In this document: positions 2,960-12,177 of the stretch, piece after piece
Layout: every line of letters starts with the position of its first letter
Numbering within the stretch: position 1 is the stretch's first letter
Source of the DNA: Candidatus Bathyarchaeota archaeon
GTDB lineage: Archaea > Thermoproteota > Bathyarchaeia > 40CM-2-53-6
Reading direction: 5' to 3'
DNA length: 64,000 nt
Assembly: GCA_963753065.1 (NCBI GenBank)
Contig: CAVWAQ010000002.1
Coordinates: 74,185 to 138,184 of the forward strand
Translations under genes and position numbers: made by a program
Notes under the pieces: generated by a model
Told to the model about the DNA's origin: nothing
The model's input: the letters and a program-made list of their open reading frames with translations, nothing else
Databases searched by the model: none

Positions 2960-3268
2960 ATGGCGGAAGTCTGTTCGACGTGCGGTCTCCCAAAGGATCT
3001 TTGCGTCTGTGGCACTATTAGCATGGAACAACAGCTTGTGAAGGTCCGCCTTGAAACAAGGAAGTGGGGTAAGCCCACTACTGTCATCGAAGGGATCGAT
3101 GCAAAGAGCGTTGACCTTGACAGTTTGGCTGGGAAGCTGAAGAGCTACTGTGCTTGTGGTGGAACCGCAAAAGACAACCAGATACTCCTCCAGGGCGATC
3201 ATCGAGACAAGGTTCGCAAGATTCTCGTACAACAGGGCTTTCCTGAATCAAGCATTGAGATACACTGA
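2960..3268 (+). CDS. sui1: Translation initiation factor aIF-1 (SUI1)
   Basis: CSTCGLPKDLCVC, GKPTTVIEG, LKSYCACGGT, LQGDHR. Confidence 0.95.
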   Translation: MAEVCSTCGLPKDLCVCGTISMEQQLVKVRLETRKWGKPTTVIEGIDAKSVDLDSLAGKLKSYCACGGTAKDNQILLQGDHRDKVRKILVQQGFPESSIEIH

Positions 3269-3290: not shown

Positions 3291-3527
3291 GTGAACCGGT
3301 TCATCGAAGTAGTGAAAGCGCTCAGGGGTCGCAGCCGATCGGCTGTCGCATGTCCGCAATGTGGAAGTCTGAACATAGCCAAGTCAACCGGGATGGACGG
3401 ATGGATGCTTCCCCCATTGTATCTCTGTCGTGATTGTGGATATGCGGGAAGAGTTGTTCTAGAGATTCAGGCCCAGGACACGTGCCGGGAGGGCTCCGGG
3501 GATGAGAAGAACGCGACGGTACGTTAA
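3291..3527 (+). CDS. Small zinc-ribbon protein
   Basis: GTG start after GGAGG; CPQCGS...YLCRDCGY. Confidence 0.7.
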   Translation: MNRFIEVVKALRGRSRSAVACPQCGSLNIAKSTGMDGWMLPPLYLCRDCGYAGRVVLEIQAQDTCREGSGDEKNATVR

Positions 3528-3608
3528 CGTTCCATATTCGGAACGTTAATATTCTCCCGTTCCGTTGGCTACGCTCTCTCAAACCCGACGAGACGCGGAT
3601 AGATCCGA

Positions 3609-4511
3609 ATGCTCAATCAGGATGCAAGTCAAAGCACAACCACACGCTCTTGCAGGATCCTCAGCGTACTCATCATACTTGTCCTTGCTGCTGCACTGAC
3701 GATGGGTGTCGCTCATGCAGAGGCCACACCGGTCGAGAGGTCTGAGTCGATAGATCTGCGTGCGGGTGATTGGCTTTCAGTATCCAGCAACAGAGAGTCG
3801 CTCCAGTCAATCGAGATTACAGGAAACCTATCTGCGGTCCAGCTCCCTTCATCCCTGCGTTACCCGGCAGACAGCTTCAACATGACCTCTTACGCCCAGG
3901 GCCATTACTCAATCACAATGGCTTTCAGCTTTCCTTCAGAGTACAACGTAGTCATCCTAGTCAACGTGAGCAATGCAGCTAGAAAAGAAATTGCCTCATA
4001 CTATTTCTCCTCGGGCCAACTGCTTCTCACAATCGATCTGAATTTCAGCGCACCTGACCCGGGTATCGCAGGTACTCACGGCACTGGGTGGGACGATTTC
4101 GCAAGCTGGACAGCTCGTTTCGGAGCTGCCTTTCCGCTTTGGGTCAAGCTGCTGTATGCAGTACTCGGATTCCAATTCGCCGTGGTAGGATACAAGTGGA
4201 TCAGATTCGAGAACGATGCAAGACAAGACAAGTCCTCGATGTCAAGATTCGACAGAGGGAACCTGCTCTATCTTTGGAGCGAGGTACTCTCCAAGCTCCT
4301 CCTAACTGCATTGCTTGTAATTGCAGCAGCGATGAGTGGACAGTTCATTCTGCTTTCAGTTCTGAAATTCATGTTTCTCGCGCAAGTCAACATGCTGAAT
4401 CTCTGGGACCTGTACGTGTTGGGATTCGCGGCGGGAATAGCAGTGATCGCTTACTGCTTCAAGCTCGTTCTCCAAAAATCGTTTGACCTTAACCCATTGT
4501 TCCAGGACTGA
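3609..4511 (+). CDS. Hypothetical membrane protein (signal peptide, extracellular beta domain, ~3 C-terminal TM helices)
   Basis: N-terminal hydrophobic stretch ending AHA-E; three hydrophobic segments; ends 5 bp before the AAA-Lon gene. Confidence 0.7.
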   Translation: MLNQDASQSTTTRSCRILSVLIILVLAAALTMGVAHAEATPVERSESIDLRAGDWLSVSSNRESLQSIEITGNLSAVQLPSSLRYPADSFNMTSYAQGHYSITMAFSFPSEYNVVILVNVSNAARKEIASYYFSSGQLLLTIDLNFSAPDPGIAGTHGTGWDDFASWTARFGAAFPLWVKLLYAVLGFQFAVVGYKWIRFENDARQDKSSMSRFDRGNLLYLWSEVLSKLLLTALLVIAAAMSGQFILLSVLKFMFLAQVNMLNLWDLYVLGFAAGIAVIAYCFKLVLQKSFDLNPLFQD

Positions 4512-4516
4512 CCGAA

Positions 4517-7303
4517 ATGGATTCACAGCAAGCAGTCCAGGCTGAAAAAGACAGGGCGATCCAGTACCTGTTCGGATCCCGAGTCCCATGGTGGGCTAAA
4601 CACAGGTGGCTCCGCTTGGCCTTCTATCTGCCTCTCAACGCACTGGACAGGAACTTCAGCAGGTGGAAGAGGGCGCGAGTTTCGCCTAGACGATTCCGCC
4701 GTCTCAAAGAGCGCCTAGACCGTCAGTATCCGCCCGAGACATACTCTCCACGCAATCTGATTGGTAGAGAGAAGGAGTTCAACCTCCTGCTAGACGCATT
4801 TCGATTGCATGTGCTGAGACATCCGGTTCTGGAGAAACTGTTCACGAGAGAGGAGTTGCCGAAGGCCTTCTGTCTAAGCGGCCAAAGCGGAACCGGCAAG
4901 ACATTCCTGACAATGGTTTCACTAAAGCAGATGCTGCTTGAAGGGCATTCGAACGGAGTCTTGGTCTCCCCTGTAATAGTCAGGGGCTCTGATGTATATT
5001 CTGAGTTCTATGGGCGAAGCACAAAGCAGCTTGGCAAGATATTGGATCAGGCCGCCTCTACACCCTCAGTCGTGTACATCGACGAGTTCCAGAGCCTCGG
5101 CAAAAAGGTCAGGGGTGAGACCGGCACTGAGATGGAGGATACGCGCGTCCAAGACGAGCTGAATCGCTGGCTCGACAAGATCACCTCAGGGCCATCCAGG
5201 ACACTTGTGGTGGTTGCCACTAACGCGTACGAGCAGACTCGTGAGGACATCCGAAGGCGGATGATGCGCATCGACTTGGATGCAGGAGTGACTCGCGAGA
5301 TGCTTCTCGCTCTAATTGAGGACTCCTTGCAGCACGAGGGATGGAAAGGGGTTTCTCCGATGGAGATTCTCGAAGTACTAGAACGTGAGGCGACAATACG
5401 TCGTAGAGGTTCCATAACTCCGAATGATGTCAGATCCGTCTTCAGAGAAGTCAAGAAAGCCAGAGAGACCCCGGTATTGGAGACGCTAAGAAAGAACCTC
5501 ACCTTCGCGCTTCCACAACTCCCGGTCACTAGGCACAGAGTCAAGATTGAGGAGTTCATTGCTGCATCCAAGAACATGAAACTGTACTCGGAACAGGAGA
5601 AATCCCGCGAAGTCATGGATGCAGTCTACCTGATCCGTCCAAAGGAAACCCGGCAGCAAATTGGAGGACTACACGAGATCAAGGATCGTATCCTCAACGA
5701 AATCTCATTGGCGTTTAATCCAAAGATGGCAGACCTGGGCTACGATTCGAACTGCCGATTTCTCTTGCTTGGCCCGCCGGGAACAGGGAAGACTCTACTA
5801 GCGTTGGTTGCGGCCGCAGAAAACAACGTCGCTTTCATCAAGGTTAGGGGAGGCGAATTGATGAGCGGCGCCTCGTACCATGGCGAGCCCGAACGGCGAA
5901 TTAAGGAACTGTTCGGACTTGCGAGACAGCGTAGCCCGTGCATTCTCTTCCTAGATGAGGCCGACGCGATCTTCTGGGGAGGAGATGCAACAAGCAACAA
6001 GCTTCTAGCCCAAGTCAAGTCTGAGCTGAGCGAGCTAACCTCCAAGGACAGAATCGTGGTGATCGCAACGTCGAACAAGGAAGAGCTCATCGACAGGGCG
6101 ACTCGGGATAGATTCGAGCCCCACGTCTACACTGTACCACCCCCGCAGAATGACGACGAATGGAACGAAGTTGTTGAGATACACCTTCTGAAGATCAAAC
6201 CGTACCTAGCTCCAGACGTTGAGGCAAAGAAGATCACACGTATGTTCAGACGCGAGCGGATCTTGAGCCCCCGAGGGGTCGCCGAGACCATCACGGAGGC
6301 GCACAGGTTATGGGTGTCAGAAATCGGCGCGGCCAACGAAGTCCGGGCAGCCACAGACCAAGAGAAGAGAACGACGGTACAGGTGCGATTTCGGGCGGAC
6401 CTCGAGAGGATCGAGCATTTGCTTCCGGCAGTCAAGAGGGATCTATCGTTTCTGGATCAAGTTCAGGTCGATACGTACAGGCTCACACTGCAGCATTTCG
6501 AGTGGGCGCTGAACTCCCTTGAGACTCCGGAAGACAGACATGCTCGAGAGCTAACGGAATCCCTGATTCTCCCCGAGCCAACGCCTGGGGTCGCATACGG
6601 CCTATACACAACCTCTCACGGCGTCGGCGGAATCATGGCGGTGCAATGCAGCGTCAGGCCCATAGTGCCTGGGGAACGGCAAGTGTCAGTTACTGGTCAA
6701 GCAACATCGGTCGTGCTGGGTCAATCTGCAGTTCCAGATCGTTCGGTCGTGCAGAGTGCAGAGAATGCGGTTGAGGCAGTCAGAGGATGGTTGTGGAATG
6801 CGGCTAGGATTGAACTAAACGAAATGCACGTCCACTTCCAGATGAGGAGTCTATCAGAGGGCGCTCCGGGTCAAGGGGTCTCCGGTCCGAGTGCGGGCCT
6901 AACCATGTTCGTTGCGCTTGTGTCCGAGCTGGCAAACATGAGATGCCATGTCTCGAAAGTCATGACCGGCACCATCGGCATAAAGCTAGACGTCGGGCCG
7001 GTAGGCGGTCTCGGTGGTTTTGGCTCGGAGACGGGGAAGCTCGTTGGGATCCTGAAGACAAAAAGAGTACGAATAACGGATCTGTTCGTGCCAAGAATTA
7101 ACTACGAGAAGGCTCGTGACGAGATGAACGTGCTGAGCGACGAAGGCATCGCCATTCACCCGATCGTTTCGGCGCATGAGACATGGGAGCCTATGTTTGG
7201 CTTGAGCGAGAGCGTCATCCTTGAGAGAATATGCTCACGTCAAGCAGAGGAAAGTCATGGTGGAAAAAAAGGGACGATAACGAACTGCGTACCTACACGT
7301 TGA
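4517..7303 (+). CDS. Tandem AAA ATPase (Cdc48-like D1+D2) fused to a Lon/S16 serine peptidase domain
   Basis: Walker A GQSGTGKT and GPPGTGKT; Walker B VYIDE and LFLDE; C-terminal GPSAG...MTGTI...GPVGG...K. Confidence 0.85.
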   Translation: MDSQQAVQAEKDRAIQYLFGSRVPWWAKHRWLRLAFYLPLNALDRNFSRWKRARVSPRRFRRLKERLDRQYPPETYSPRNLIGREKEFNLLLDAFRLHVLRHPVLEKLFTREELPKAFCLSGQSGTGKTFLTMVSLKQMLLEGHSNGVLVSPVIVRGSDVYSEFYGRSTKQLGKILDQAASTPSVVYIDEFQSLGKKVRGETGTEMEDTRVQDELNRWLDKITSGPSRTLVVVATNAYEQTREDIRRRMMRIDLDAGVTREMLLALIEDSLQHEGWKGVSPMEILEVLEREATIRRRGSITPNDVRSVFREVKKARETPVLETLRKNLTFALPQLPVTRHRVKIEEFIAASKNMKLYSEQEKSREVMDAVYLIRPKETRQQIGGLHEIKDRILNEISLAFNPKMADLGYDSNCRFLLLGPPGTGKTLLALVAAAENNVAFIKVRGGELMSGASYHGEPERRIKELFGLARQRSPCILFLDEADAIFWGGDATSNKLLAQVKSELSELTSKDRIVVIATSNKEELIDRATRDRFEPHVYTVPPPQNDDEWNEVVEIHLLKIKPYLAPDVEAKKITRMFRRERILSPRGVAETITEAHRLWVSEIGAANEVRAATDQEKRTTVQVRFRADLERIEHLLPAVKRDLSFLDQVQVDTYRLTLQHFEWALNSLETPEDRHARELTESLILPEPTPGVAYGLYTTSHGVGGIMAVQCSVRPIVPGERQVSVTGQATSVVLGQSAVPDRSVVQSAENAVEAVRGWLWNAARIELNEMHVHFQMRSLSEGAPGQGVSGPSAGLTMFVALVSELANMRCHVSKVMTGTIGIKLDVGPVGGLGGFGSETGKLVGILKTKRVRITDLFVPRINYEKARDEMNVLSDEGIAIHPIVSAHETWEPMFGLSESVILERICSRQAEESHGGKKGTITNCVPTR

Positions 7304-8219
7304 GGCTGAGGGACTCCTTGAGGCCCTTGTATCTATTGCGAACAGTGACTTCAGTCACGTTCGCGACTTCAGCGATCTCCTTCTGAGTTTTCTTCTCTTG
7401 CTCAAGCACACATGCGACGTAGAGCGCTGCAGCGGCTAGGCCCATGGGGTCTTTGCCTGCAACAATGCCTTTCCTTCGTGCTTCGTTGATGATGTCCATG
7501 GCTCGTCTTTGGGTCGGCATGCTAATGTCGACCTTGGTCGCTATTTTTGAGACGCATTTGACTGGATCCTCGACGGGCATCCTGAGGTCAAGTTCTCTGA
7601 CGAGGAGTCGATAGCATCGAGCGACATCTTTCTTCCGTATACGTGTCGCTCCCGCCAGATCCTTAAGTGTCCTTGGTGTCTCCGAGAGTCGGCATGCAGC
7701 GTAGAGGGAAGCTGCCGCGATCGCCGCGATCGATCTTCCTCTCACAAGTCCGCTTTCGAGAGCTTTTCGATATATGATGGCGGCTCTTTCTTTGATTGGG
7801 TTGGGGATGTGAAGTTTGTCGGTCAGTCTGTCGAGGTCAGCCATTGCCTGAGCGAGGTTCCGATCAGCGGATGAATGAACTCGGGTCCTAATCTGCCACT
7901 TGCGAAGTCTGAGCATTTCTAGGCGGGTCGCCAATGGCAGCTGACGCCCGTACGCATCTCTATTCACTCTATCAATGACCGTAGATAGGCCCTTGTCGTG
8001 GATAGAGAACGAAGTTGGGAGGCCGACACGCCCCCTTTCATCTCTCTCTTCCTTCGTAAAAGCCCGCCACTCTGGTCCACGATTAATCGCATGTTCACTC
8101 AGAACGAGGCCGCAATTTTGACAGATTACCTCTCCTAGATCAAAGTCTTCGACGAGGTTGTTGCTCGCGCATTCGGGGCAGTTCGTTATCTTTCCAATCT
8201 TCTTGGTCGTTGCGGCCAT
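7293..8219 (-). CDS. tfb: Transcription initiation factor IIB
   Basis: CPEC/CQNCG zinc ribbon, GPEWRAF, HDKGLST, two cyclin repeats, VTEVTVRNRYK. Confidence 0.97.
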   Translation of the reverse strand: MAATTKKIGKITNCPECASNNLVEDFDLGEVICQNCGLVLSEHAINRGPEWRAFTKEERDERGRVGLPTSFSIHDKGLSTVIDRVNRDAYGRQLPLATRLEMLRLRKWQIRTRVHSSADRNLAQAMADLDRLTDKLHIPNPIKERAAIIYRKALESGLVRGRSIAAIAAASLYAACRLSETPRTLKDLAGATRIRKKDVARCYRLLVRELDLRMPVEDPVKCVSKIATKVDISMPTQRRAMDIINEARRKGIVAGKDPMGLAAAALYVACVLEQEKKTQKEIAEVANVTEVTVRNRYKGLKESLSLNV

Positions 8220-8639
8220 TTTTTTCTCCACTCTCCATACTTCGGCGTGCCTACACCATCTGTCGCCAAAACGCACCTTCACAACGCAGTCGGGGACGGA
8301 AGGCGGCCATTTGGTCGGAAGGCATAATAGCCTCGTAATAGTCGTATAAAAAACTTGTCCAAAAAGAGAATATAACCCTCCACTTGAAGCTCCATGACCC
8401 CTCCGTGACGTGACAAAATGACTCCGGATCAGAATTTGGGCCTTGAGAATGCAAAATCGCGCCCAAGAGGGCTCAAATTGGACGAAAACCGACCATCTGA
8501 GACGGTGATGGGCAAGACCGGTGACATGTGGGCGCGAGTCGGGTAAGAGCGTTGAGATCGTGCGAAACGCTGCTCGATCTGCTTATCTTTCAGCAACCTT
8601 TTGAGCGCAGACGGAAATGAGGCGGGCGGGGATTCGCGA

Positions 8640-9554
8640 GTGTCAAGGGACGACGATGTAGTTGCGGCGATAGGGAAAGTCCAAGCCAGTGTTACTAACA
8701 TCAACACTATTCGTTTCGAGAGGGATGCGTTCCTGCATGTGCACCCGGCTCGGGGTATCGGTTCCGGATTCATTATCGATGACAAGGGGCACATCCTCAC
8801 CAATCATCACATCACAACTGGCTCGCGTGAGATCGAGGTTGCGTTGACAGACGGTAGAGCTTTCGAAGGAAAGCTCGTCGGGTCAGATCCTGCCAACGAT
8901 CTCGCCGTCGTGAGGATTGACACACGCGATCTGCCTGTGGCCGAACTGGGCAATTCAAGTGAGTTACGAGTGGGTCAGACGGTCATCGCCATCGGGAACC
9001 CATTTGGGTTGGCTGGTGGGCCCTCAGTCACAGTGGGAGTTGTCAGCGCGCTAAATCGTCACATCTTAGCGGAAAGAGTGTACGAGAACTTGATTCAGAC
9101 AGACGCGTCTATCAATCCTGGCAACAGTGGCGGCCCTTTGCTCGACTTGACAGGCAAAGTCATCGGGATCAACACCGCCAATATCCCCGGCGCTCAAGGT
9201 ATTGGATTCGCAATCCCAATCAATACGGCAAAAGCGGTCCTGGACGACATCGTAAAGTACGGCAGAGTCACCCGGCCTTGGTTGGGAGTCATCGGCCTCG
9301 ATGTTTCCCGCGAAGTCGCGCGAAGGTTCAGCTTGGCCGTTGGTTCTGGAATCTTCGTGATGCAAATAATCCCAGAGAGTCCAGCCGAACGCGCACAACT
9401 GCAGTCGGGCGATGTGATCGTAGGAATTGATAACACGCACCTCGATTCCATGGAAGGCCTGCAGAGAGAAATAAGAACACGAAGAGCTGGCGACGGTGTC
9501 TCTCTCGTTGTCGTGAGAGGATCCGAAGAAGGGAAAGTGAGGGTCACGCTGTAG
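8640..9554 (+). CDS. htrA: HtrA/DegP-like serine protease with one PDZ domain
   Basis: GSGFII, TNHH, DLAV, QTDASINPGNSGGPL, PWLGV PDZ; start codon uncertain (8601 or 8640). Confidence 0.92.
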   Translation: MSRDDDVVAAIGKVQASVTNINTIRFERDAFLHVHPARGIGSGFIIDDKGHILTNHHITTGSREIEVALTDGRAFEGKLVGSDPANDLAVVRIDTRDLPVAELGNSSELRVGQTVIAIGNPFGLAGGPSVTVGVVSALNRHILAERVYENLIQTDASINPGNSGGPLLDLTGKVIGINTANIPGAQGIGFAIPINTAKAVLDDIVKYGRVTRPWLGVIGLDVSREVARRFSLAVGSGIFVMQIIPESPAERAQLQSGDVIVGIDNTHLDSMEGLQREIRTRRAGDGVSLVVVRGSEEGKVRVTL

Positions 9555-10910: not shown

Positions 10911-12177
10911 TCACGGGAATATTCCTCTGAGTTTCGTTATCTCGGCCATCTTGTCTACCGCCAACATGTAGGCTGCCTCTCTCAAGGTGACCTTGCGTTC
11001 TTCAGCGAAATCGTGGATTTGACCAAACGCGCCCGTCATCAAGACTTTCAGCCTTGAGTTGACTTCGCCCTCTGACCAAAGGTATGCCTGGATATCTTGA
11101 ACCCACTCAAAGTACGAGACTATCACTCCACCCGAGTTTGCAAGGATATCAGGAACAACGTGCACACCTTTTTTCTGCAAGATGTCGTCTCCGTCTCTAG
11201 TTACTGGCCCATTAGCTCCCTCGACTATTATCTTGGCCTTGACCTCTGATGCATTCGATTCGGTGATCTGGTTTTCAAGCGCGGCCGGAACCATGACATC
11301 GCTTTTCATTGACAGCAATCGACGGTTTGCCTCTGCCATGTCGGTAACGACCTCGCCACCCGCAAAGCCGCGAATTCCTTTCGTCTTCATTGCGTGAAGT
11401 GACGAGGTTTGGAACATCGATCCCTTTGGGGTTGAAGATTCCCCCGCTCATGTCGGTAATTCCAACGATTCTGCAGCCATCATCATGCAGAAACCTTGCG
11501 ACGTTCATTCCGACGTTTCCGAAGCCCTGAACGGTAACTGTCGTGTCCTTCGTGTCCATGTTGAGGTGCTGTAGCATCTCCTCTGCGACGTATGCGAGTC
11601 CTCTGCCGGTGGCAGTGGCTCTCCCCTTTGATCCTCCGAGTTGTAGAGGCTTCCCTGTGACGACGCCCGGGACCGTGTATCCTCTGAGCATACTGTACGT
11701 GTCCATAATCCACGACATTGTCTGGTAGTCCGTGTTGACATCTGGGGCAGGGATATCTTGCTCGGGCCCGATGAGCGGGAGGATCATGTACGTGTAACGT
11801 CTGGTCAACCGCTCAAGCTCATCCATGGACATCCTCTTTGGGTCACAGGCAACTCCGCCCTTTGCGCCTCCAAAGGGGATATCCACAACTGCACACTTCA
11901 GCGCCATCAGGCCGGCGAGCGCTGTCACCTCTTCCAAACTGACATCCGGATGATATCTGATCCCGCCTTTGCTTGGGCCTTTCACGTAATTGTACTGCAC
12001 GCGATAACCGGTGAAAATCTCAACTTCTCCATTGTCCATCTTGACGGGAAAAGTAACCATCAGGCTTCTCCGAGGCGTTCTCAAGGTCTTGTGAATGCCG
12101 CGTTCAAGGTTCAGTTTCTTTGCCGCGTCGTCTATTCTGCCAATCACGTCATCTAGGAACTTCTGACCCTGCGACAT
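10911..12177 (-). CDS. gdhA: Glutamate dehydrogenase with a single frameshift near 11400 (probable sequencing error)
   Basis: [30 protein letters not shown] in the 5' ORF; [29 protein letters not shown] in the 3' ORF. Confidence 0.9.

Follow-up and report, generated by a model that had tools for sequence, protein, structure and literature searches.

Introduction

The described architectures of energy-dependent proteases comprise Clp, HslUV, Lon, FtsH and the proteasome with PAN or Cdc48. Among them, Cdc48 and its relatives VAT and p97 carry two classical-clade AAA modules in tandem, D1 and D2, and the C-terminal tail with which Cdc48 docks on the 20S proteasome is an HbYX-type motif. The Lon proteases have one ATPase module that is followed by a peptidase, and FtsH has one AAA ring joined to a metallopeptidase. 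We have analysed a stretch of 64,000 nucleotides (nt) from a Candidatus Bathyarchaeota archaeon (GenBank assembly GCA_963753065.1, contig CAVWAQ010000002.1, positions 74,185 to 138,184 of the forward strand), which we call the window. A gene in the window, here termed AAA-AAA-Lon, joins two of the known architectures anew, since it encodes the tandem classical-clade motor of Cdc48 and the Lon peptidase in one chain. We estimate the probability at about 0.6 that this gene encodes a self-contained two-ring ATP-dependent unfoldase-protease of an uncharacterised type that possibly works at the membrane. If active, it would be, as far as could be found, the first AAA motor with two rings to carry its own peptidase. 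The division of unfolding between two rings and the transfer of the substrate to the proteolytic chamber could then be studied in a system that is single-chain by nature.

An initial annotation, made from the letters of the window without database searches, had proposed a double-ring unfoldase-protease architecture that it did not recognise as a characterised family. Our analysis supports this interpretation, in which ring assembly and proteolysis are predictions from sequence, and we found no description of such a family in the open-access full-text literature (main texts in PubMed Central and bioRxiv). One phrase that looked like a match, 'fused to Lon' in 10.1101/2020.10.19.343400, reads 'fused to longin' and was rejected. 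As far as the portion available from it goes, a Lon subfamily survey of 2022 (PMC9569914) covers only the single-ATPase forms LonA, B, C and BA. A census of prokaryotic serine proteases from 2008 (PMC2605481) gives, in the part consulted, LON-AAA-Lon_C, Sigma54- or Mg-chelatase-Lon_C and PDZ-Lon_C but no AAA-AAA-Lon_C, and the excerpted text of a Cdc48 family survey (PMC5070193) is without the words Lon, protease domain or peptidase. The sequences are already public under generic names, so that the gene itself is not new. These names are 'AAA family ATPase' or 'SpoVK/Ycf46/Vps4 family ATPase', and the word 'protease' occurs in none of the names seen. With such a generic ATPase annotation, current genome surveys overlook that these proteins are likely to be proteases.

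Domain architecture of the AAA-AAA-Lon protein

The gene (4517..7303) is one uninterrupted open reading frame (ORF) on the forward (+) strand, from ATG to TGA, with 928 amino acids (aa) plus stop; the motifs and domains given below lie on the same strand. Pfam places AAA (PF00004) twice in the protein (E 5.5e-48) and Lon_C (PF05362) on residues 687-868 (E 2.8e-13, 50.4 bits against a cut-off of 21.1). The matches are far above chance level. The Pfam result confirms the order AAA-AAA-Lon_C that the initial annotation had read from the sequence, including the assignment of the C-terminal domain to Lon, and every motif that it had named is present at its place in the intact ORF.

The D1 module (4853..5536) contains the Walker A motif GQSGTGKT (residues 122-129 with K128; nt 4880-4903), the pore loop EFYG (residues 163-166; nt 5003-5014), the Walker B motif VVYIDEF (residues 185-191 with D189 and E190; nt 5069-5089) and the segment IRRR (residues 245-248; nt 5249-5260). 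The corresponding elements of the D2 module (5639..6256) are GPPGTGKT (residues 419-426 with K425; nt 5771-5794), SYHG (residues 453-456; nt 5873-5884), ILFLDEAD (residues 476-483 with D480 and E481; nt 5942-5965) and RDRF (residues 530-533 with R532; nt 6104-6115), and N520 is its sensor-1 residue. Because the motifs for ATP binding and hydrolysis, the arginine fingers and the aromatic pore loops are kept in both rings, both probably translocate. Pfam reports no match to AAA_lid_3 in the protein. A helical D2 lid and linker (about residues 581-686; 6257..6574) with a conserved LxHFExA motif that includes H660 leads over to the Lon (S16) proteolytic domain (6575..7261), which is assigned by Pfam Lon_C, by profile and by fold match.

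The N-terminal region (about residues 1-112; 4517..4852) is helical in the model and contains an aromatic and basic, Trp/Arg-rich motif, PWWAKHRWLRLAFYLPL (residues 24-40; nt 4586-4636), that is conserved across the family. No family in Pfam or NCBIfam matches residues 1-110, and the ESM Atlas contained no convincing look-alike of the region: the best scores of the searches with the partner protein described below and with the N-terminal region were 0.82 and 0.88, below the level of 0.9 from which the tool rates a hit as a lead. By hydropathy, the AAA-AAA-Lon protein has no hydrophobic segment.

The likeness of the motor to Cdc48 runs in order through both modules. The genome has a Cdc48 of its own, a protein of 719 aa with CDC48_N, CDC48_2, two AAA domains and two lids in Pfam. 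Residues 100-574 of AAA-AAA-Lon align with it in order by BLASTP (28% identity, E 1e-36), and in this alignment F164-Y165-G166 and Y454-H455-G456 coincide with the canonical pore loops. The CDC48 model of NCBIfam (TIGR01243) likewise matches in a single in-order stretch, residues 99-644 on model positions 197-720. Both by sequence and by fold, VAT and p97/Cdc48 are the nearest solved structures of the motor. AAA-AAA-Lon thus shares with Cdc48, VAT and p97 the tandem D1-D2 modules of the classical clade in the same order, together with aromatic pore loops and complete Walker motifs in both rings. It differs from them in that Pfam finds neither CDC48_N, the double-psi barrel, nor CDC48_2, and in that the score of 151.6 bits is well under the curated family cut-off of 802.65. 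In addition, a peptidase takes the place of the free C-terminal tail that docks on the 20S proteasome: from about residue 580, D2 is followed by about 350 residues of linker and Lon domain, and the chain ends in ...NCVPTR. The term 'Cdc48-like', used in the initial annotation, therefore holds for the D1-D2 motor but neither for the N-domains, which are absent, nor for the family score.

For the peptidase we built a profile from 18 C-terminal domains sampled across the phylum (alignment A2). Its best match is the proteolytic (P) domain of A. fulgidus LonB (4e-20), followed by Thermococcus LonB and then by BsLonBA (8e-16) and E. coli LonA (1e-14). The alignment with LonB puts VSGPS on VEGDS and GK on QK, and hence Ser792 and Lys841 on the catalytic Ser and Lys. 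Ser792 (codon at 6890) lies in the GPSAG motif (residues 790-794; nt 6884-6898), an MTG motif with T817 follows (nt 6962-6970), the insertion loop (residues 833-840) lies within GGLGGFGSETGK (residues 830-841; nt 7004-7039), and the codon of Lys841 is at 7037. An AlphaFold model of residues 641-928 (pLDDT 80, pTM 0.78) matches solved Lon P domains of all subfamilies in Foldseek (E 1e-13 to 1e-15, target-normalised TM up to 0.82). In Lon enzymes the catalytic Ser stands at the start of a helix and the Lys within another helix; in the model Ser792 opens a helix and Lys841 lies inside another. Ser792 is preceded by Pro as in A-type centres, for which a Pro at this position is described in the accessible portion of PMC9569914.

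The positions of the two catalytic codons and their distance of 49 were correct in the initial annotation, and the longer spacing is conserved across the family, with 48 residues between Ser792 and Lys841 in the window protein and 46 in other clades. The insertion of six residues that had been noticed beside the catalytic Lys is real but composite: in alignments A1 and A2, four of the extra residues, just before the Lys, are family-wide in comparison with LonB, and two are specific to the clade of the window.

Comparison with other ATP-dependent proteases

The kinship of motor and peptidase to Cdc48, FtsH and Lon is judged here by score comparisons. With LonA, LonB, LonC and LonBA (MEROPS S16), the protein shares the C-terminal Lon-fold P domain, the Ser-Lys dyad at positions aligned by sequence and the joining of the peptidase after the ATPase in a single chain, and by profile the P domains of archaeal LonB are closest. 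Unlike Lon, which has one Lon-type module (HCLR clade), it has two PF00004 modules of the classical AAA type, and Pfam finds in it neither the LON substrate-binding N-domain nor the transmembrane insert of LonB nor an AAA_32/LonB lid. The Lon equivalog models of NCBIfam score only 20-48 bits against cut-offs of 516-891. A placement of Lon in a distant HCLR clade is given in the part of 10.1101/617159 that we cite.

FtsH is similar in that a classical-clade AAA module is directly fused to a peptidase, and the likeness would extend to work at the membrane if the partner protein acts as an anchor. In FtsH, however, a single AAA ring is combined with a zinc metallopeptidase of family M41, and the protein has its own N-terminal transmembrane helices, whereas AAA-AAA-Lon has two rings and a serine peptidase. 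Pfam finds no match to Peptidase_M41 in the protein, and the FtsH models of NCBIfam match the AAA core only (81-96 bits against cut-offs of 600-1008). In ClpAP and ClpCP, too, two stacked ATPase rings supply the chamber of a serine peptidase; in contrast to AAA-AAA-Lon, this peptidase is a separate ClpP 14-mer and the Clp ATPases belong to another AAA+ clade, with ClpA models of NCBIfam reaching only about 20 bits. The protein is thus not a member of Cdc48, LonA/B/C or FtsH, since it lacks defining features of each.

Conservation and distribution

A word-based search returned 320 proteins at E<=0.001. Among the 120 of these matches that were listed, the best is 96% identical to the window protein, most are about 60% identical and nearly all have 905-939 aa. 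An exhaustive search added about two dozen further clusters with 27-37% identity and 858-1120 aa that match nearly end to end, and of 22 distant relatives scanned with Pfam, 20 have two AAA domains and Lon_C at E<=1e-5. The typical length in the family is about 900-940 aa. Two of these 22 carry additional elements. A metagenomic protein of 1261 aa (P0139 / P0409) has an intein with a LAGLIDADG domain inside D2, and another one of 1120 aa (P0135) has an additional C-terminal PF04450 (BSP) peptidase domain after the Lon domain.

We determined residue conservation in 212 distinct relatives that are matched by the C-terminal profile and have a length of 800 aa or more. These proteins are related, many of them closely, and are not independent; the counts show constraint on the residues and not independent events. 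In the peptidase, S792 is kept in all 212, K841 in 211, P791 in 210 and T817 in 209, and the G-P-S-A-G context and T817 are each kept in at least 206. The single exception at Lys841, a change to Arg in P0137, belongs to one of the two distant relatives in which Lon_C is not matched at E<=1e-5. The D1 motifs are conserved to a similar extent (K128 212, D189 211, E190 209, R246-248 207-210 and G166 210 of 212), as are those of D2 (K425 211, D480 212, E481 212, N520 211, R532 212 and G456 212 of 212). We reject an artefact or a chimeric assembly in view of these 212 full-length relatives from many sources. The gene is under purifying selection: in comparison with orthologues, the ratio of non-synonymous to synonymous substitution rates (dN/dS) is 0.075 at 91% identity and 0.052 at 82%.

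Source names of the relatives include Bathyarchaeota, Nitrososphaerales/Thaumarchaeota, Marsarchaeota and 'archaeon'. Two proteins with 62-63% identity to the window protein (P0084 and P0103) are labelled Terriglobales or Acidoferrales bacterium at NCBI; because all other labelled relatives are archaeal, these two have probably been misbinned in soil metagenomes. When the phylum was sampled evenly, 49 of 301 genomes and 21 of 123 genera had a match to the C-terminal domain, and for 46 of these 49 the open frame is 899 aa or longer. In several families most of the genomes sampled have the gene (15/17, 5/6 and 4/6). Identity drops stepwise with taxonomic distance, a pattern resembling that of vertical inheritance. 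Of 41 related genomes, 17 have a full-length uninterrupted copy and 9 a partial, split or stop-containing one. AAA-AAA-Lon is a large, conserved and uncharacterised archaeal family, and its neighbour gene, obligate and described in the next section, was previously unnoticed. The family bears on protein quality control, possibly at the membrane, in Bathyarchaeia, Nitrososphaerales and Marsarchaeota, groups that are abundant in soils, peat and sediments.

A membrane protein gene accompanies the protease gene

Directly upstream of the protease gene lies a gene for a polytopic membrane protein of 300 aa (3609..4511, + strand), which was recognised by hydropathy, sequons and synteny and had been missed in the initial annotation. 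Its stop codon is 5 nt ahead of the protease ATG at 4517. The protein begins with a hydrophobic segment in its N-terminal part and continues with a middle region of about 135 aa with four N-x-S/T sequons. Three to four hydrophobic segments follow in the C-terminal part, and FDLxPxxxD is conserved at the C-terminus. The region with the sequons is probably outside the cell. All 63 relatives of the partner protein are named 'hypothetical' and have no Pfam match, and nothing usable on the partner family came from Pfam, PADLOC, NCBIfam or the ESM Atlas.

A gene for a membrane protein of similar layout adjoins AAA-AAA-Lon in 18 of 18 loci, which stem from 18 genomes of 7 taxonomic families. In 15 of them it is co-directional and immediately upstream, in the other 3 it is divergent. 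The length is 238-300 aa in most loci and 124-134 aa in two, and in one locus the gene consists of two ORFs. A split is seen in a same-genus genome (L009 4645-5617), where the partner appears as ORFs of 185 and 116 aa next to an intact protease gene, owing to a frameshift or a sequencing error. When all neighbouring ORFs were clustered all against all, only protease and partner recurred across families. The partner diverges faster than the protease: at the family level identity is 31-35% for the partner and 62% for the protease, and the dN/dS of the partner is 0.15-0.26. A predicted complex of protease residues 1-360 (A1) and partner residues 160-300 (A3) scored 0.00 in both runs; these runs were without controls and count neither way.

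The pair has been lost in part of the genus. Metagenomic DNA contigs from two runs join position 4148 to 6726 of the window, so that 2577 nt (4149-6725) are skipped. This removes the last third of the partner gene together with protease codons 1-736, and in one run the depth is about 300 for the deleted and about 11 for the intact form. A different deletion is found in a genome of the same genus (G003; locus L044, G003:C8, about 2982-3052), where synteny jumps from about 3479 to about 6857 of the window. Both deletions leave the last 150-200 or so codons of the Lon domain beside the convergent TFIIB gene. The gene pair is thus maintained by selection in many lineages, yet it can be lost.

Possible function of the AAA-AAA-Lon protein

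The mechanism that we propose builds on the established workings of Cdc48/VAT, ClpAP, Lon and FtsH. Six subunits would assemble into two stacked classical-clade AAA rings, D1 and D2, both of which look capable of ATP hydrolysis. Driven by ATP, the aromatic pore loops would thread the unfolded polypeptide through D1 and then D2 into a chamber formed by the six C-terminal Lon domains, where the Ser792-Lys841 dyad would cleave it processively. Overall, such an enzyme would resemble a ClpA-like two-ring motor with its own peptidase in one chain. The N-terminal region with its Trp/Arg-rich motif may select substrates or partners. The membrane protein, through a putative contact with the enzyme, probably holds it at the membrane as a tether or anchor, acts on it there as a regulator or adaptor, or serves as its dedicated substrate. 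The pair would then have a role like that of FtsH or LonB.

The enzyme would act beside other proteases. The genome also encodes a 20S proteasome with three proteasome-family subunits, the canonical Cdc48 and a second Lon-like protease of 809 aa (L042 611-3037, G000:C8) with LonB-type AAA and lid domains. The latter has a helical domain of the LonC type, a B-type active site and no hydrophobic segment, and is thus a soluble, LonB/C-like protein. With proteasome, Cdc48 and this Lon-like protease present, AAA-AAA-Lon would be an additional protease system. The cut-off of LonB (TIGR00764) was reached in none of the 41 related genomes, so that a canonical membrane-inserted LonB was not found in them, and a membrane-inserted AAA protease was not detected in the genomes searched. 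This leaves room for a role at the membrane and is no proof of one. We also considered AAA-AAA-Lon as a simple replacement of LonB and rejected it: most of the 41 genomes carry a soluble Lon-like protein of about 810 aa, regardless of whether the AAA-AAA-Lon gene is present, and there is hence no simple either/or pattern.

Taking the pair as a whole, we tentatively put forward a bolder view, which we regard as doubtful rather than likely: protease and partner may constitute a hitherto unrecognised, membrane-associated class of AAA proteases of Thermoproteota (TACK) archaea, in which a two-ring 'Cdc48-Lon' enzyme is recruited by a small polytopic membrane subunit of its own and extracts and degrades proteins of the membrane or envelope. 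If true, it would be a functional counterpart of bacterial FtsH made from different parts, in lineages in which no canonical membrane-inserted LonB was detected.

Several observations weigh against the proposed mechanism. The D2 pore loop in the clade of the window is unusual, since it reads S-Y-H-G with an insertion of two residues, where other clades have K-W-x-G. The Ser-Lys spacing departs from that of LonA and LonB, for which 'exactly 42 residues' between the catalytic Ser and Lys are given in the cited portion of PMC9569914. In the AlphaFold model the loop by Lys841 is poorly modelled (pLDDT < 50 at residues 835-837), and this low-confidence inserted loop makes the geometry of the active site uncertain. 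As to distribution, 15 of the 41 related genomes gave generic AAA matches only, two genomes (G023 and G026) have stop-containing copies of the protease gene, and the pair is dispensable, having been lost at least twice within the same genus by the two different deletions. The partner proteins fall into three sequence clusters that neither phmmer nor iterated hidden Markov models link. The hhalign probability is only 13.8% for clusters 1 and 2 (E 0.002, 206 columns) and stands at about 2% for each of the remaining pairs; with the clusters unlinked, common descent of the partners is not established. Finally, in the single RNA run that shared any words with the window (5% of those sampled), contigs covered only 3445-3600 and 7261-7400 and thus neither gene, though such contigs are uninformative on an absence of expression.

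Some stand-alone Lon-like peptidases make site-specific or self-processing cuts. It is conceivable, if rather unlikely, that AAA-AAA-Lon is in the same way a segregase or remodeller with a peptidase for limited cleavage: the rings would extract or unfold one client, for instance the neighbouring membrane protein, and the Lon domain would cut at specific sites or process the enzyme itself. The strict pairing with a single partner gene suggests such a dedicated client, the insertion by the catalytic Lys could restrict access to the active site, and bulk turnover is already served by the 20S proteasome, Cdc48 and the other Lon-like protease. Against this view, the peptidase follows the last ATPase ring without a break in the chain, in the manner of Lon and FtsH, and the aromatic pore loops conserved in both rings are as expected of full threading.

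A role in conflict or defence, in which an AAA-protease and a fast-evolving membrane effector would follow a logic like that of the anti-phage pair IetA/IetS, an ATPase with a protease, or the Lon-like BrxL of BREX, is in our view quite improbable. The IetA models of PADLOC do match the D2 region (3.1e-33), the gene is variably present and repeatedly deleted in one genus, and the partner diverges much faster than the protease, as described above. The IetA matches span the generic AAA core only, however, and the IetA/IteA model NF042959 reaches 107 bits against a cut-off of 510. No subtilase (IetS) is among the neighbours, nor is a subtilase, nuclease or other defence gene a conserved neighbour. 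Housekeeping genes for a GTPase, TFIIB and SAH hydrolase flank the pair, and their synteny is conserved. The presence in most sampled genomes of several families, with an identity pattern that looks vertical, likewise argues against a defence module.

In RadA/Sms and ComM-type ATPases, a Lon-like C-terminal domain has the role of a non-catalytic scaffold. That the Lon domain of the present protein is also catalytically silent, serving oligomerisation or substrate binding in what would be purely an ATPase, is highly improbable, for although the loop by Lys841 is poorly modelled and the Ser-Lys spacing is unlike that of all characterised Lon subfamilies in the available part of PMC9569914, the near-invariance of Ser792, Lys841, the GPSAG context and T817 is hard to explain without catalysis, and the sole Lys-to-Arg case is a protein in which a Lon_C match at E<=1e-5 is missing as well.

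Neighbouring genes

About 60 nt upstream of the partner gene there is a perfect inverted repeat with arms of 10 nt, TTAACGTTCC-N6-GGAACGTTAA (3524..3549), which overlaps with an AT-rich stretch, TTAATATT. The arms are 100% complementary. The core of the repeat, GTTCC..GGAAC, is kept in 4 of 4 aligned same-genus sequences; three same-genus genomes, including the deletion variant, have it. The repeat may serve the two-gene unit as an operator or promoter element.

Downstream, the protease gene shares its last 11 nt with the convergently oriented TFIIB gene (7293-8282, - strand), which marks the host as an archaeon. The TFIIB gene is followed by a gene for an HtrA-like trypsin-PDZ protease (8601-9554, + strand), whose synteny is seen in one same-genus genome (L002, the same contig as L009), with the other loci ending earlier or showing no match. 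Further along, a glutamate dehydrogenase gene (10911-12177, - strand) appears split into two overlapping ORFs, 11275-12177 and 10911-11417, which jointly cover the N-terminal and catalytic domains in Pfam; the split is either a frameshift or an assembly error.

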